A DNA stretch of 64,000 nt from Pachysolen tannophilus NRRL Y-2460 (Eukaryota). Both the position numbers and the translations under genes were made by a program. A model generated the notes under the pieces. That model was not told the DNA's origin and made no database searches. It saw only the letters and a program-made list of their open reading frames with translations. Shown here piece after piece: positions 39,086-64,000 of this stretch (within the stretch, counting starts at the first letter, position 1; the number at the start of each line of letters is the position of its first letter). Where the stretch lies: contig KV454014.1 of NCBI GenBank assembly GCA_001661245.1, positions 450,954-514,953 of the forward strand, given 5' to 3'.

Positions 39086-39578
39086 TTAATCTCTACTTTT
39101 AGCAATTCCATCAGCAACTTCTAATATCAATTCATTAATCCAATCTAATAATTCATTTTTCCTTTTAATAGCCAGTTTTTTCTCTTTTTCAACTTTTGTT
39201 AGTTCTATTTGCAAACTTTCAATTTTTTCCACTTGTTCTTTCTTTGTAACACCTACCCCAGGTAATGAATCTATTACTGTTAAAATTTGCCGTGTTTTAA
39301 GAATTAAATCTGAACTTAATTCATTTATTGCACCATTAAACTCTTCTTCTGGAATAATTGTTGCCAAAGGATCTGTCATTTTCTCTTCTCCAATCTCTGT
39401 GGGTATAAAATCATGATGTTTATCTACATAATTAAGTGTTGAACAAAATTGTTCTATAAGCTATTAATATTTTCAAGTTAGTTTTTTATTCCAATACAGA
39501 TATAAATTTAAAAAATAAATAAACATGAATACTTACTTGATCTAAACAAATCTGAAGTTGGGTCAATCTATCTGCCAT
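39086..39578 (-). CDS. SRB7: Mediator subunit Med21/Srb7, spliced
   Basis: Exon 1 39537-39578 (MADRLTQLQICLDQ). Intron 39461-39536: GTAAGT...AACTAAC...TAG. Exon 2 39086-39460 (LIEQFCSTLNYVDK...IDSLPGV); 138 aa. Confidence 0.96.
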
Positions 39579-39827: not shown

Positions 39828-40734
39828 TTATGTGGTTTTTTTCTTGGATTCCTTTTTTAATTCTTTAATTTCCTTGTAAATACATGATAATTTGTTTTTT
39901 AAATTAATAATTTCAATACAATTATAAACACCTTTTTCGAAAAATTTTTTTGATTCTTTTAATTGGAAAGGGACTAAGATTCCAAACATATTAATTGGAT
40001 CTCTATAAGGAAGATCTTTTTTTTCAAATGTCATTGACTTTTTTTGTAAAGTAAAATTTTCATTCTTTTGATTTCTATTGCGTAAAGTGGAAAATTCCTT
40101 TTCGTTATTATTATCTTCATTTTCCAGTATTTCCTTTTCCTTTGTTTCTAATAAGTTTTTTTTTTGTAATTCTAACAAATCAATTAATTTCAAATTGTTA
40201 TTTTCATCAGTTTCACTTCAAAATGAGTAATATGAGTTAGTAAATGATCATGATCTTCTTTTTTTTTCTCTCTTATATAAAAATAATTAATATTAAAATT
40301 ACTTACACAATTTTTATTGCTTTGACTTCTCTTAAATCGTAATAATCTCTATTAAACCTTCTATGGTTATTACCATTAGCATAATTGGCTCTCGACAAAT
40401 TAATGAACCCATTAACGAAATTCATCCTATACTCTTGACATTTTAATTCATACTTGTTTAATAAATTTAAATATTCAATCATTTTTAAATCCATATATGA
40501 CTGTAAATTTTTATTATTTTGATCATCACCATCTTCATGTAACATTGTAGATGTGGAAAATTTGGAAATTAAATCTTCTGGTAAATCATCAGTTTCACTT
40601 TCAATTCCACTTTCAGTTCCACTTTGTGTGCTACTTTCTTCCCTTAGAGAATCATCAACCTTATTTCTCGATAAGTTTTCAACGTCTTGGCTCAAGGACA
40701 GACTACCGTTAACCTCATTCAATACTAATGACAT
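39828..40734 (-). CDS. VMA22: V-ATPase assembly factor Vma22/CCDC115, spliced
   Basis: Exon 1 40307-40734 (...GFINLSRANY...YDLR). Intron 40216-40306: GTAAGT...TACTAAC...AAG. Exon 2 39828-40215 (DPINMFGILVPFQLKES). Joins two ORF-track pieces in frame; 271 aa. Confidence 0.88.
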
Positions 40735-41602
40735 TACCAACCTCTTTCCAAGACCCAAAAATATAAAAATAAAAAGAAAAAAGATGAATAAAAAAAAAAA
40801 GCCTCCCAGATCTAATTTGAACTTTGAACTTTGAACTTTGAAATATTTACAAATCTATAGTTGAAGTTGAAGATGAAGTTAAAAAGTTATCTCTTCTCTT
40901 CTCCTTTCCTTTTGTTTTGTTTTTCTACCTTTTTCTTTTTTTTTCTTTTGCGATTTTTTGTTTGCGCTTACAAACATGGATTTTTTATATATAATCGAAA
41001 ATCAAAAGAAAAGGTTCTCGATGTGTAGTCAACGACAGTTACCTTAAAGACAGAAATAGCAAGTTTAGACAGATGAGATGATCACGTCAGATCTTTAGAT
41101 ATATATGGCGGATTAAATAAAAAAATCTAAACTACAAACTTGTACATACTCGTAATAATTGCAACTACAGAATTGGAAATAAATGTAGGAACCAAAAAAT
41201 AATTTACAAATTGAATCTCACTTTACTCACTCAACATCTTTCTATTTTTCTAATCTCTTTTAATCTCTTTTAATCTCTACTAATCTCTAATCTCTGTGGC
41301 TACCGCTGTTACTGTTACTGTTACCGTTACCGCTACTGCTGTTACCGCCGTCGTTACCATACTAATAGAAACAAAACAATAAAAACAGGTAGTGCACCGA
41401 AACACACAAAAGTTGTTTTTTTTTGTTTACATTTTCTGTAAACAGCGAAAAACAAAAAAAAATAAAAACAAAAACACAAAACAAAACAAAACAAAACAAT
41501 TTTCTAATATTATAACAAATAAGTTCACGGTGAAAGAGTATTAGATTGATGTTCTTGTGAGGACAAAAAAAAAAAGACATAGAGCGCTTATTTTTTTTTG
41601 GT

Positions 41603-57048: not shown

Positions 57049-60000
57049 ATGGCCAGTGAAATCCCAATAGATTTTACAGAATTGGCCCAATTGACTTCAT
57101 TGGGTATACAGTCCCAGTCATTGGATTTCAAATCTACTACATTAGAATCAGATAAATATGTCTGTGTTCGAGAATCAACTGCAAATGGCAATTCTGTTTC
57201 AATTATTGATTTACAAGATGGTAATAAAGTTATAAAAAAAAATATGTCTGCTGATAATGCTATTATGCATCCAAGGCAATTGGTTATTTCATTGAGAGCG
57301 AATGGTACTACTTTGCAAATTTTTAACTTGGAATCAAAGCAAAGGTTGAAGGCTTTTACAATGTCTGAACCAGTTATTTTTTGGAAATGGTTGGATGATG
57401 AAGTATTGGGTTTAGTGACTCAATCTGCTATATTCACTTGGAGTGTATTTGATGGTACCAATGGCGGTCCAATAAAATTGACCGATAGGCACATCAGTTT
57501 GGGTAGTTGTCAAATAATCAATTTTGTAGCGAATGAGGCTCGTGATTGGTTTGCCGTTACTGGTATTGCTCAAGAAAATGGTAGAATTGCCGGTCATATT
57601 CAATTATATTCAAAACAGAGGAATATTTCACAAGCAATTGAAGGACATGTTTCCAAATTTTCCAAGATTAGATTGGATGGGGCATCTGTCGATACTCAGG
57701 TATTTGCCTGTGGTAATAGAACAGTAAATGGTGGTCAATTACATATCATTGAAATTGATCATCAAGAAGGTGCTCCAGTTTTCACTAAAAAAACGGTGGA
57801 TATCTTTTTCCCACCAGATGCAACAAACGATTTCCCAGTCTCGTTGCAAATTTCAAGCAAATATGGTATTATCTATTTGTTAACTAAATACGGTTTCATC
57901 CACATTTATGATTTGGAAAGTGGTGCCAATATCTTTGTTAACCGTATCTCCGCTGAATCTGTTTTTGCCGCATCATCGTATAATAATGGAACCGGTATAA
58001 TTGCAGTCAATAGATCTGGTCAAGTTTTGAGCGTTGAAATTTCTAAAGATAAGATTATTCCATATATCTTGACAAAATTATCCAATGTACCCTTAGCTAT
58101 AGCTTTATCTGCAAGAGGTGGTTTGCCAGGTGCAGAAAATTTGTTTATTCAACAATTTAATCAAAGTTTGATGAGTGGTGATTACTCTAGCGCAGCTAAA
58201 ATTGCAGCATCTTCTGAACAATTGAGAACATCGGATACAATCAACAAATTGAAAAATATTCAACCAACTCCTGGTCAAATTTCTCCTGTCTTGCAATATT
58301 TCTCAATTTTGTTGGATAAAGGTAATTTAAATAAATTTGAATCTATTGAATTGGCTAAGCCTGTCTTGCAACAAGATAGAAAACCATTATTTGAAAAATG
58401 GTTAAAGGAGGATAAATTGACAACATCAGAAGAATTGGGTGATATAGTTAAACCTTATGATACTCAATTGGCTTTGGCAGTCTATTTAAGAGCTCAAGTT
58501 CCAGTAAAAGTTGTCGGTGCATTAGCTGAATTAAACCAATTCGATAAGATTTTACCATATTGTGAAAAAGTTGGTTACCATCCAGATTATACTATTTTAA
58601 TTCAAAATATTTTAAGAATCAATCCTGATAGTGCAGCGGAATTTGCAACTCAATTATTACAGACAAAACCAGATTTGGATGTAGCCAAGATTGCAGATGT
58701 TTTCCTCTCACAAAATTATATTCAACAAGGTACTGCATTCTTATTAGATGCTTTGAAAGAAGATAAACCGGCAGAAGGTCATTTACAAACAAGATTATTG
58801 GAAGTCAATTTATTACATGCTCCTCAAGTTGCAGATGCTATCTTGGGAAACCAAATGTTTTCTCATTATGACAGACCAACAATTGCTGCATTGTGTGAGA
58901 AGGCTGGATTATACCAAAGAGCATTGGAACATTATGAAGATATTAAAGACATTAAACGTGTGATTATTCATACTAATGTTTTACCTACCGATTGGTTAGT
59001 AAGCTATTTCGGTAAGTTGAACGTTGAGCAATCAGTATCTTGTTTAAGAGAAATGTTATCCAAAAATATGGCACAGAACTTGCAAGTTGTTATTCAAGTT
59101 GCAACTAGATACTCTGACTTAATTGGTCCTTTGACTTTGATTAAGATTTTTGAAGATTACAAATGTGTTGAAGGTGAATATTACTATTTAGCTTCTATAG
59201 TAAACGTAACTCAAGATTCCGAAGTAGTCTTTAAGTATATTCAAGCAGCTTCAAAGTTGGGACAAATAAAGGAAATTGAAAGAGTCGTTAGAGAAAATAA
59301 CGTCTATAACGGAGAAAAAGTTAAAAACTTTTTGAAAGAAGCTAAATTAGATGATCAATTGCCATTGATTATTGTATGTGATCGTTTCAATTTCATTCAT
59401 GATTTGGTATTATACTTGTATAAGAACGAATTATTCAAGTTTATTGAAGTGTACGTTCAACAAGTTAATCCTGCCAGAACTCCACAAGTTGTCGCTGGAT
59501 TATTAGATGTAGACTGTGATGAATCTATTATTAAAGCTTTATTACAATCCGTTCTCGGATTAGTTCCAATTCAAGATTTGGTTGACGAAGTTGAAAAGAG
59601 AAACAGACTAAAGATTTTATTAAGCTTTTTGGAGGCTACTTTACTGGGTGGCTCAACTGATAAAGCTGTTTATGACGCGTTGGCCAAAATTTATATTGAC
59701 TCAAATAATAATCCAGAAAAATTCTTAAAAGAGAATGACATGTATGACACAAAAGTCGTTGGTAAATATTGTGAGAAGAGAGATCCTTACTTGGCTTATA
59801 TTGCCTACTCCAAGGGTCAAAATGATGACGAATTAATTAAGATCACCAACGAAAATGCTATGTATAAATATCAAGCAAGATATTTATTGAGCAGATCGGA
59901 TTTGACCTTGTGGTCGAAAGTTTTGAATGATGAAAACATTCATAGAAGACAATTGATTGACCAAGTCGTTGGTAATGCTATACCTGAGTTAGAAGATCCT

Positions 60001-62052
60001 GAGCCAATTTCAATTGCTGTTAAAGCTTTTATGGAAGCAAACTTACTTTCTGAGTTAATTGAATTATTGGAAAAAATTATTTTGGAACCATCTCCATTTA
60101 ATGACAATCCTTCGTTGCAAGGTTTAATGATTTTAACAGCTATTAAAGCTGAAAAATCTAGAGTCATGTCGTATATCGAGAAATTAGATGCTTTTGATCC
60201 AGATGAAATTGCTCCATTAGCAGAAGAAGCGGGATTATACGAAGAAGCATTTGAAATTTATGATAAATTTAAGTTACATTCTAAGGCCTTGAAGGTTTTG
60301 GTTGAAGATGTCATGTCATTAGATAGAGGTGAACAATATGCTGAAAAATTAGATCAACCTGAATTGTGGTCTCAATTAGGTACCGCTCAAATAAATGGTT
60401 TAAGAATTCCAGAAGCTATTGATTCTTATATCAAAGCAAATGATCCATCTAACTTTGAACAAGTTATCGATATTGCAGAACATGCTGGAAAAGAAGAAGA
60501 ATTAATTCCATATTTGAAAATGGCAAGGCAAACTTTACGAGAACCAAAAGTTGATGGTGCGATCATCAATGCATATGCATCTACAGATAAATTAAGTGAG
60601 ATCGAAAATTTCTTACAGTTGACAAATGTCGCAGACTTGGAATCAATTGGTGATAAATTATATGAGAATCAAAACTACAAGGCTGCGAAATTGATTTATT
60701 CGAACATTTCTAACTACAGTAAGTTAGCTTCGACGTTAGTTTACTTAAATGACTATCAAGCTGCTGTTGATTGTGCAAGAAAAGCTTCGAACATTTCTGT
60801 TTGGAAACAGGTCAATGATGCTTGTATTGACAACAAAGAATTTAGATTAGCTCAAATATGTGGTTTGAATTTGATTGTTCATGCTGATGAGTTGCAAGAA
60901 TTGGTCTCCAAATATGAATATCATGGTTATTTCAATGAATTGATTTCCTTGTTTGAGAGTGGTTTAGGATTGGAACGTGCTCATATGGGAATGTTTACTG
61001 AATTGGCTATTTTATATACAAAGTATGCTCCTGAAAAAACAATGGAACATTTGAAATTATTCTGGTCAAGAATTAATATTCCAAAAGTCTTGAGGGCCTG
61101 TGAAGATGCCCACTTATGGCCAGAATTAGTCTTTTTGTATTGCCACTATGATGAGTGGGATAATGCAGCATTGACTATGATGGAAAGATCAGAATCTGCT
61201 TTTGAGCATAACTCCTTTAAAGAGATTATAGTCAAGGTTTCAAATTTGGAAATTTATTACAAAGCAATTAACTTTTACATGAACGAAAATCCTCAATTAA
61301 TTGTTGATTTGCTTTCTTCTTTAACTCCAAGAATTGATTTACCAAGAGTTGTTAGAATTTTCCAAAAATCAGATAACTTGCCTATGATTAAACCATTCTT
61401 AATTTCTGTATTGGATAAGAACAATTCAGTTGTAAACCAAGCGTATCACGATTTATTGATTGAAGAAGAAGATGATAAGACTTTAAGATCAGTTATTGAA
61501 TCAAATGATAAATTTGATGCGTTAGGTTTAGCAGAAAGATTGGAAAAACACGAAATCATTTTCTTCAGACAAATTGCTGCTGTTTTATACCGTAAAAACA
61601 AAAAATGGAGTAAAGCTTTATCAATATTGAAAATCGACAAATTGTGGAAGGATGTTATTGAAACTGCTGAAATATCTGGAAAGAGTGATATAGCAGAAGA
61701 TTTATTAACTTATTTTGTCGAAACAGGAAATACCGAATGTTTCATCGCAATGTTATATAAATGTTATAATTTGATCAGATACGATGTGGTTTTGGAATTA
61801 TCATGGTTACACAAGTTGGATGATTATATTAAACCTTACCAAATTTCAATAACGAGAGAAAATCAAGAAAAGTTAACCAAAGTATATTCTGATTTAATCG
61901 AGAGAGAAGAAGCAAAGAAAAAAAGCGAGCAAGAACAAGAGCAACCAATACTAGGCCAAAGATTAATGATTACTAACGGTACTGGTATTCCAATGCAACA
62001 GCCTGCTATAGGTTTCCAGCAAACCGGTATCGGCTTTGGTAATGGTTTCTAA
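57049..62052 (+). CDS. CHC1: Clathrin heavy chain
   Basis: TTLESDKYVCVRE, MSADNAIMHP, CHCR repeats, GLGLERAHMGMFTEL and RLMIT tail; 1667 aa. Confidence 0.99.
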   Translation: MASEIPIDFTELAQLTSLGIQSQSLDFKSTTLESDKYVCVRESTANGNSVSIIDLQDGNKVIKKNMSADNAIMHPRQLVISLRANGTTLQIFNLESKQRLKAFTMSEPVIFWKWLDDEVLGLVTQSAIFTWSVFDGTNGGPIKLTDRHISLGSCQIINFVANEARDWFAVTGIAQENGRIAGHIQLYSKQRNISQAIEGHVSKFSKIRLDGASVDTQVFACGNRTVNGGQLHIIEIDHQEGAPVFTKKTVDIFFPPDATNDFPVSLQISSKYGIIYLLTKYGFIHIYDLESGANIFVNRISAESVFAASSYNNGTGIIAVNRSGQVLSVEISKDKIIPYILTKLSNVPLAIALSARGGLPGAENLFIQQFNQSLMSGDYSSAAKIAASSEQLRTSDTINKLKNIQPTPGQISPVLQYFSILLDKGNLNKFESIELAKPVLQQDRKPLFEKWLKEDKLTTSEELGDIVKPYDTQLALAVYLRAQVPVKVVGALAELNQFDKILPYCEKVGYHPDYTILIQNILRINPDSAAEFATQLLQTKPDLDVAKIADVFLSQNYIQQGTAFLLDALKEDKPAEGHLQTRLLEVNLLHAPQVADAILGNQMFSHYDRPTIAALCEKAGLYQRALEHYEDIKDIKRVIIHTNVLPTDWLVSYFGKLNVEQSVSCLREMLSKNMAQNLQVVIQVATRYSDLIGPLTLIKIFEDYKCVEGEYYYLASIVNVTQDSEVVFKYIQAASKLGQIKEIERVVRENNVYNGEKVKNFLKEAKLDDQLPLIIVCDRFNFIHDLVLYLYKNELFKFIEVYVQQVNPARTPQVVAGLLDVDCDESIIKALLQSVLGLVPIQDLVDEVEKRNRLKILLSFLEATLLGGSTDKAVYDALAKIYIDSNNNPEKFLKENDMYDTKVVGKYCEKRDPYLAYIAYSKGQNDDELIKITNENAMYKYQARYLLSRSDLTLWSKVLNDENIHRRQLIDQVVGNAIPELEDPEPISIAVKAFMEANLLSELIELLEKIILEPSPFNDNPSLQGLMILTAIKAEKSRVMSYIEKLDAFDPDEIAPLAEEAGLYEEAFEIYDKFKLHSKALKVLVEDVMSLDRGEQYAEKLDQPELWSQLGTAQINGLRIPEAIDSYIKANDPSNFEQVIDIAEHAGKEEELIPYLKMARQTLREPKVDGAIINAYASTDKLSEIENFLQLTNVADLESIGDKLYENQNYKAAKLIYSNISNYSKLASTLVYLNDYQAAVDCARKASNISVWKQVNDACIDNKEFRLAQICGLNLIVHADELQELVSKYEYHGYFNELISLFESGLGLERAHMGMFTELAILYTKYAPEKTMEHLKLFWSRINIPKVLRACEDAHLWPELVFLYCHYDEWDNAALTMMERSESAFEHNSFKEIIVKVSNLEIYYKAINFYMNENPQLIVDLLSSLTPRIDLPRVVRIFQKSDNLPMIKPFLISVLDKNNSVVNQAYHDLLIEEEDDKTLRSVIESNDKFDALGLAERLEKHEIIFFRQIAAVLYRKNKKWSKALSILKIDKLWKDVIETAEISGKSDIAEDLLTYFVETGNTECFIAMLYKCYNLIRYDVVLELSWLHKLDDYIKPYQISITRENQEKLTKVYSDLIEREEAKKKSEQEQEQPILGQRLMITNGTGIPMQQPAIGFQQTGIGFGNGF

Positions 62053-62156
62053 AGAAGCCAAAAGTTCACTTCCTTTTTTTTTAATAAAAGTATATAAAGA
62101 AAAAGAAAAAAGAAAAAAAAATTGTTTAAATGTTTTTATATATAGTTCTGAGAAAA

Positions 62157-62354
62157 ATGACACCTTTTGATTTTGAGTTTGTGCTTGATTCAGATGGAAA
62201 TGTCAAATTAACAAAGATTCAAATTGCTACACCAGGTATAAATGTTTGGAATCCTTCCTTCGATGTAACTCCTCATCGATTAATCGATTGTATTGTCACA
62301 GAAGACAAGTATTTATTGAAAGATGCGTCTGGAAATTTTCATCTAGAGAAATGA
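62157..62354 (+). CDS. MRI1: Displaced C-terminal fragment of MRI1 (last 60 codons) behind a new in-frame ATG
   Basis: [45 protein letters not shown]...SGNFHLEK contains the NP(A/S)FDVTP..LI..IVTE signature ending MtnA/Mri1. Homology begins at 62169. Confidence 0.85.
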
Positions 62355-62604
62355 TTCAAGTTCTCAAACTTTATAGATATAGAAACAAGAGATAAAAAAT
62401 ATAATTATAATAAACTGAAATATATTGCGATAAATAACAAAAGAAATCTGACCATTGAAATCTAAACTTCAATTTCGTAGCTCAATTGATATAAAAAAAA
62501 AAATTAAAATAAAATAAAAATAAAAATAAAAAATAATAAAAAAAGATAAACTAAAAATATCAATGTTCAACAAAATCAATTTCAAAACTGGAATAAAATG
62601 TATC
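62169..62604. other. Intragenic inversion (62172-62601) bounded by GAT/ATC microhomology
   Basis: Flipping the segment restores one continuous 417-aa MRI1 ORF: ...[17 protein letters not shown]... Confidence 0.85.
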
Positions 62605-63672
62605 CTCTTGGTTTAACTCCCCACCTCTAATGGATGTTAATTCTTTGGAAGGTCTTTGTTCAATAACGATATCACTTCCATCAGCTAGATTAAGATCAAT
62701 AGTGGTCTTAGGAGCAGCTCCTATAAACTTAATGTCCTTGAAATTTGAAGCAATTAAGGAAAGTTGGAAAGTTCCTATTTTATTTGCTAAATCACCATTA
62801 TGAACAATTCTATCGGCACCAACAATTATATACCTTAGTGGAGACTTATCAGGTAAATCTTGGGATTTTTTTGGAAAAGTTAATGATTCTGCCAAGAAGG
62901 ATACCATGTTATCAGTGATCAAAGAAAATGGTATTTTTTCATAATTCAATTCATAAGAAGTAAGTCTAGCTCCTTGGTTATAAGGCCTTGTCTCACACGC
63001 ATAAACGTGGGATAACCAAAATTCGTCATTATCTTCAACGTTATTTTTTGGATTTAATTTTGATTTTGCCCATAAAGACCTAATAATACCTAATGCTGTA
63101 CCATGACCTGATGTTGCCAAAGAACCTGTATTACAAATTGTCATTACCGAGAAAGGACCTTTAAAAGATGAATTTTTCAAATCTTGATAAATATAATCAA
63201 CACCATTTTCGCCAATTTTATAATTATTCACCAAATCATCTTCAAACAACTTAATACTGTAATCCTTTAACTTCAGTAATAATTCTTTTGGATCAGTATT
63301 TTGATTTTCACTAATAATTTCCCTTATATCGTTACAAGCATTTAATAAATTTACTGCAGTTGGTCTAGATTTTATCAAATAATCAATTCTCTTGTGTAAA
63401 TTATTGATAAAACTGGAATAGTTTGACAAATCATAATTAAAAACTTGAGCTTCCCCATTGTTCACAACATCATTCAATTCCAGTACAATTGAGAAAGAAC
63501 CAACAATAGCAATTGCAGGTGCACCTCTGACTTGCATCGCTTTAATAACATTAAATCCATCATCTATATTCTTCACTTGTATATACTTTGTCTGATAAGG
63601 AATCAAAAGCTGATCTAAAATCAACAATTTACAATTTTCCTTATCAAACTTTATAGCTTCTAAAGTCGACAT
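62560..63672 (-). CDS. MRI1: Methylthioribose-1-phosphate isomerase, N-terminal part (homology ends at 62602; 13 unrelated residues then stop)
   Basis: [55 protein letters not shown] and IVIEQR; lacks the terminal NPxFDVTP motif. First ATG at 63672. Confidence 0.93.
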
Positions 63673-64000
63673 TATCCTTAAACTCAAAAGAAATGGTTAT
63701 GTGTTATAATGATTGATCAACCATTCATTTCTTACTATTAAATAAAAAAATTTTTTATTTAATTAATTTATTTGAGAAAAACTGTGGCTGCACTCTCTAT
63801 TTTAACCATCATTTAAATTAAACGAATTAAAGAAAATAGATGAAAACCCCCCAATACAACTTTCTACAAGTTATCTTTTCGATAAATAAGAACTCTCTCT
63901 ATTGAATGATACTCCAGCAAGTAAGGAGATCCAAAGTCAAAAAAAAAAGATCAAAATGGGGAAAAAAAAACTGTTCAAAAAGTGAAAATGGAATAAAAAA

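Follow-up and report, generated by a model that had tools for sequence, protein, structure and literature searches.

How the gene for a housekeeping enzyme comes to be encoded in two pieces on opposite strands is the question raised by the MRI1 locus in the deposited genome assembly of the yeast Pachysolen tannophilus NRRL Y-2460 (GCA_001661245.1). The window, i.e., the whole stretch of DNA that was analysed, comprises 64,000 nucleotides of contig KV454014.1 (positions 450,954 to 514,953), and all coordinates given below refer to it. In this record, a minus-strand open reading frame of 370 aa (63672..62560) corresponds to Mri1 over residues 1-357 and then continues into 13 unrelated residues followed by a stop codon. 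The remaining 59 Mri1 residues are encoded on the plus strand, between 62175 and 62354, such that the two halves of MRI1 face each other, both of them without stops or frameshifts. A first-pass annotation of the sequence had recognized this arrangement and had offered three readings, namely a recent inversion affecting methionine salvage, a tolerated gene fission or an assembly error. The data presented here argue for the last of these: the split very likely reflects a wrongly oriented segment in the deposited assembly, and neither a gene fission nor a switch.

The identity of the gene product is apparent from both pieces. The N-terminal piece matches the Pfam family PF01008 (IF-2B) over positions 1-261 of the 280 in the profile, with an E-value of 7.9e-49 and 166.8 bits (cut-off 22.4), and this piece alone reaches 309.1 bits against the NCBIfam model TIGR00512 (mtnA; cut-off 279, positions 2-308 of 335). 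Among solved structures it matches human MRI1 (4ldq, E 1.8e-61) and also chains A and B of the yeast protein 1w2w, residues 4-129 of chain B corresponding to residues 220-357 of the query. The plus-strand stretch 62157-62354 aligns without gaps to residues 127-188 of the same 1w2w chain B (E 3.6e-13) and to positions 297-330 of the 335 in TIGR00512. Combined, the two halves represent the entire family profile, with the C-terminal piece resuming exactly where the body ends, and it is in this coverage of the full profile by both halves that the locus resembles S. cerevisiae Ypr118w (PDB 1W2W) and human MRI1 (PDB 4LDQ).

Within the 370-aa frame, C180 (in the motif CNTG) and D287 (in GADR) fall in columns that are at least 90 % conserved in the alignment of relatives; we take these residues to be the presumed catalytic cysteine and aspartate, in accordance with the roles described for the enzyme of B. 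subtilis. Every sequence feature tested was found, and as judged from its sequence the gene belongs to the Mri1/MtnA family as one of its ordinary members, its product being a predicted methylthioribose-1-phosphate isomerase. The description given by the first-pass annotation is borne out by these profile, structure and alignment matches: Mri1 can be followed on the minus strand to the GAT codon at 62604-62602, after which the frame runs into unrelated residues; the missing C-terminus lies on the plus strand and extends to the TGA at 62354, as seen with 1w2w_B and TIGR00512; and neither half contains a stop or a frameshift.

Public sequencing runs give a view of the locus that differs from the record. 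Runs X1, X2, X3 and X5, which represent at most three samples from two studies (2010-2023), were compared with the window as Logan contigs over 60800-64000; X4 was left out of this comparison. In each of the four, 62484..62174 on one strand is followed directly, within one contig, by 62603..64000 on the other strand, with no intervening letters, no letter differences in the flipped piece and at least 255 letters on the shorter side. The complete MRI1 coding sequence is found on one contig in each of these runs, and the strand-helix region at the C-terminus (block ...VWNPAFDVTP...), which the window has on the other strand, is contiguous with the body of the protein on that single contig. A second contig, again present in four out of four runs, reads from 60800 to 62173 or 62174 and then from 62601 or 62602 to 62550 on the other strand, its short side measuring 52-53 letters. 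The junctions defined by the runs are thus 62173|62174 and 62602|62603. At the left joint there is a play of one letter (62173|62602 in X5 as against 62174|62601 in the other runs), because a single complementary letter is common to both ends.

The window's own order across 62173|62174 or 62602|62603, with at least 31 letters on each side, was found in no contig of the four runs, and the contigs of all of them pass both junctions unbranched. Only the intact orientation is seen, which establishes the intact form as present and dominant rather than the form of the window as absent, Logan contigs being prone to drop rare variants. The inner continuity of the flipped segment is taken from the window, as 62485-62549 is bridged by no contig. 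When 31-letter words were sampled from 61700-63900, each of five runs (two studies) contained a share of 0.93 and none a higher one; the 60 words that span both window junctions make up 2.8 % of this stretch. A split of MRI1 in the organism itself consequently finds no support, since both uninverted junctions and an intact MRI1 are carried by all four runs. According to the first-pass annotation, reads for the uninverted arrangement only would turn the split into an assembly artefact; at the level of contigs this is what the four runs contain, none of them having the junctions of the window.

Each run also holds a third contig with two matches to this region, one of 27 letters with 3 mismatches at 62163-62189, over the left break point, and one of 18 exact letters at 61927-61944. 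The two matches are 15 letters apart and lie on opposite strands. As a bridge across the left junction this contig was rejected: on neither side does it reach 31 letters, and it continues into unlike sequence on both. It probably derives from another locus, with a chance or low-complexity likeness to the window.

Compared with the runs, the window contains a segment of 429 bases (62174..62602) whose orientation is opposite to that in all four of them, as delimited by the contig junctions. The part of the MRI1 coding sequence that extends from the start codon to residue 357, and that includes the CNTG and GADR motifs, occupies 62603..63672 on the minus strand, as identified by profile, structure and alignment matches; codon 357 can be taken to end at either 62602 or 62174. 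Codons 358-416 together with the stop codon TGA (62175..62354) lie inside the segment and read from the plus strand, which is the wrong one in view of the structure and profile matches and of the flip. They are followed by 248 bases of MRI1 3' flank (62355..62602, plus strand), likewise flipped according to the run contigs. It is from this flipped flank that the spurious tail of the 370-aa frame is read (62560..62601, minus strand; 13 codons and a stop): it follows ...NQED, whose last codon is the GAT mentioned above, and is absent from all eight relatives aligned. The segment also contains an A-rich low-complexity tract (62485..62549), in which the contigs break off in all four runs. Neither join is marked by an N in the record.

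A scripted flip of 62174-62602 restores one open frame of 416 aa that reads ...NQED|EFVL... at the join and ends in ...HLEK; flipping 62175-62601 yields the identical DNA. The nearest relative, P0004, also has 416 aa, is 69 % identical and reads ...ENN EFV TDS... at the corresponding position, with no gap needed. The first-pass annotation had inverted 62172-62601, and this join does give an open frame, of 417 aa, as it had stated. The ends given by the runs are nevertheless 62174-62602, with a product of 416 aa, and the 417-aa form has one Phe more and scores lower against five out of six relatives. Aligned over its full length to P0004, for example, the restored 416-aa protein scores 588 bits and the 417-aa join 584. 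The exception is P0005, for which the longer form obtains 535 bits and the 416-aa form 533. In length, the restored protein equals its nearest relatives in the Mri1/MtnA family. What sets the locus apart from this family, the last 59 codons on the other strand, exists in the record only; the runs are without such a difference.

The surroundings of the restored gene are unremarkable. MRI1 and the clathrin heavy chain gene (57049..62052, plus strand, 1667 aa) converge, their stop codons being separated by 369 bases, which is an ordinary layout, and the 3' end of the clathrin gene is on the left-junction contig in every run. No inverted repeats that could drive recombination were detected: the 54 pairs found in 61600-63200 are A/T-rich chance matches, none with arms at 62174 and 62602, in line with the earlier statement that the ends lack a long inverted repeat. 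The ends of the flip have one complementary letter inward and none outward. The GAT at 62169-62171 and the ATC at 62602-62604, noted previously as a 3-bp microhomology, are indeed present, but the argument built on them falls with the real ends, which share one letter.

Elsewhere in the window, a homologue of Vma22/CCDC115 (PF21730) is encoded in two exons at 39831-40737 on the minus strand. Its intron, at about 40305-40218, is an ordinary spliceosomal one of ~88 bases (GTAAGT ... TACTAAC ... AG). The small gene for Mediator subunit 21 (PF11221, E 4.3e-30) lies at 39089-39460, also on the minus strand. Neither tRNA genes (ARAGORN) nor Rfam families at gathering score were found in the whole 64-kb window.

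The consequences of the arrangement have reached the protein collections. The entry P0003 (370 aa, one member) is, letter for letter, the translation of the window frame according to NCBI table 26, in which CTG stands for Ala; both CTG codons of the frame 63672..62560 (residues 64 and 133) appear as Ala in the public entry. Since P0003 is identical to the translation of the window frame, the flip belongs to the public record, from where it has passed into a protein entry. Among the 120 best Mri1 relatives, the 370-aa product is the shortest, the others ranging from 375 to 437 aa, and none of the 120 is an intact Mri1 protein from the same species. The nearest named relatives in this set are from Kuraishia and Komagataella (65 % each); together with the reading of CTG as Ala and a GC content of 0.30 in the window, they point to a Pachysolen-like yeast. 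No paper in the literature collection that was searched combines Pachysolen tannophilus with methylthioribose.

The runs are not equally similar to the record. Three differences from the window are common to X2, X3 and X5, namely A>T at 63750, an additional AA behind 63743 and an additional A behind 63938. These are differences in homopolymer length, an A run and a T run (63744-63756) and an A run near 63938 each being one letter longer than in the window and in X1. X1 is identical to the window at all three homopolymer sites, and yet it has the intact MRI1 arrangement at both junctions; its sole deviation from the window is a single 1-letter gap in the contig piece 60800-62174. Since X1 agrees with the record at three sites where the other runs differ, it is the run closest to it, and it is possibly the source data of the record. 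The homopolymer differences themselves suggest either residual errors in the record, also elsewhere, or true strain differences.

A word of caution is in order, as a real two-break inversion would likewise leave an exact flip with blunt ends as its footprint. A very recent event of this kind, of the end-joining type and private to the sequenced clone or stock, would have knocked out MRI1 and with it methionine salvage in that stock, while others remained intact. The exact reciprocity of the flip and the lack of stops and frameshifts in the two halves are what one would expect of a fresh event; besides, contigs can miss a form that is rare in or absent from the runs compared, and the record may have been assembled from a library other than X1. 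We nonetheless regard such an inversion as unlikely, considering that X1 combines the homopolymer lengths of the record with the intact arrangement at both junctions, that none of the five runs stands out by a higher share of the sampled words, and that a repeat to drive the recombination is missing. For the reference clone as such, we think it quite unlikely that it carries a private blunt 429-bp inversion destroying MRI1; if it did, the reference strain would be a natural methionine-salvage mutant among otherwise intact stocks.

A reversible or heterogeneous inversion, with both orientations present in the culture and the minor one taken up by the assembler, could draw on the tendency of contigs to lose minority forms, and on nothing more direct. 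It is very improbable, given ends that have one complementary letter and no inverted repeats, contigs that run unbranched through both junctions in all four runs, and an orientation that would destroy a housekeeping enzyme. Site-specific invertible DNA switches are known, e.g., those of the Hin/Gin and Fim type. The sole likeness to them is an inverted DNA segment, and the present locus differs by the absence of flanking inverted repeats, by a single orientation in the contigs of four out of four runs, by its yeast host and by the housekeeping nature of the gene. As to a tolerated fission, in which the body of 357 residues and a C-terminal peptide of ~65 residues, expressed on its own, would together form an active enzyme, an in-frame ATG at 62157 or 62130 is available ahead of the C-terminal piece. 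This reading presupposes a real inversion, however, and is thus contradicted by the run contigs; moreover, nothing points to a separate promoter for the plus-strand piece, which is located 117 bases downstream of the clathrin stop codon, and each of the other 119 among the 120 best relatives is a single chain, 375-437 aa long. A fission is accordingly extremely unlikely.

An assembly error of orientation in the deposited record, the one of the three earlier readings that the four runs support, would account for the locus as follows. The organism would carry MRI1 as an ordinary, intact minus-strand gene of 416 aa that converges on the clathrin heavy chain gene, and the record would have 62174-62602 the wrong way round, a piece that comprises the final 59 codons with their stop codon plus 3' flank of 248 bases. 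It is this orientation that would make the record show a truncated 370-aa frame with a false tail and an orphan C-terminal piece. As for the cause, we infer that, most likely, a short contig or gap-filling piece around the A-rich low-complexity tract was joined without being reverse-complemented. Joining of this kind would leave precisely a reverse-complemented middle part between unchanged left and right parts, without gain or loss of letters. The fit to a misjoined piece comes from the letter-exact reciprocity of the flip, from the lack of a repeat at its ends and from the independent contigs that break inside the segment.

Inversion-type misassembly, in which a short piece is placed in the wrong orientation, is a well-known class of assembly error. 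The MRI1 locus resembles it in that a short segment bearing low-complexity sequence is flipped exactly and in that contigs from an independent assembly of the reads disagree with the record. It departs from it in that the ends lie here in unique sequence and not in a repeat, and in that no N marks the joins.

As far as the data go, the anomaly is no real feature of the organism. Its practical value is that it reveals a local orientation error in the record of this AT-rich yeast with its CTG=Ala code, and it calls for correction of both the record and the entry of 370 aa. Left as it stands, an Mri1 cut to 370 aa and ending in a false tail would mislead the scoring of presence or loss of methionine salvage across yeasts, or alignments of the Mri1 family.
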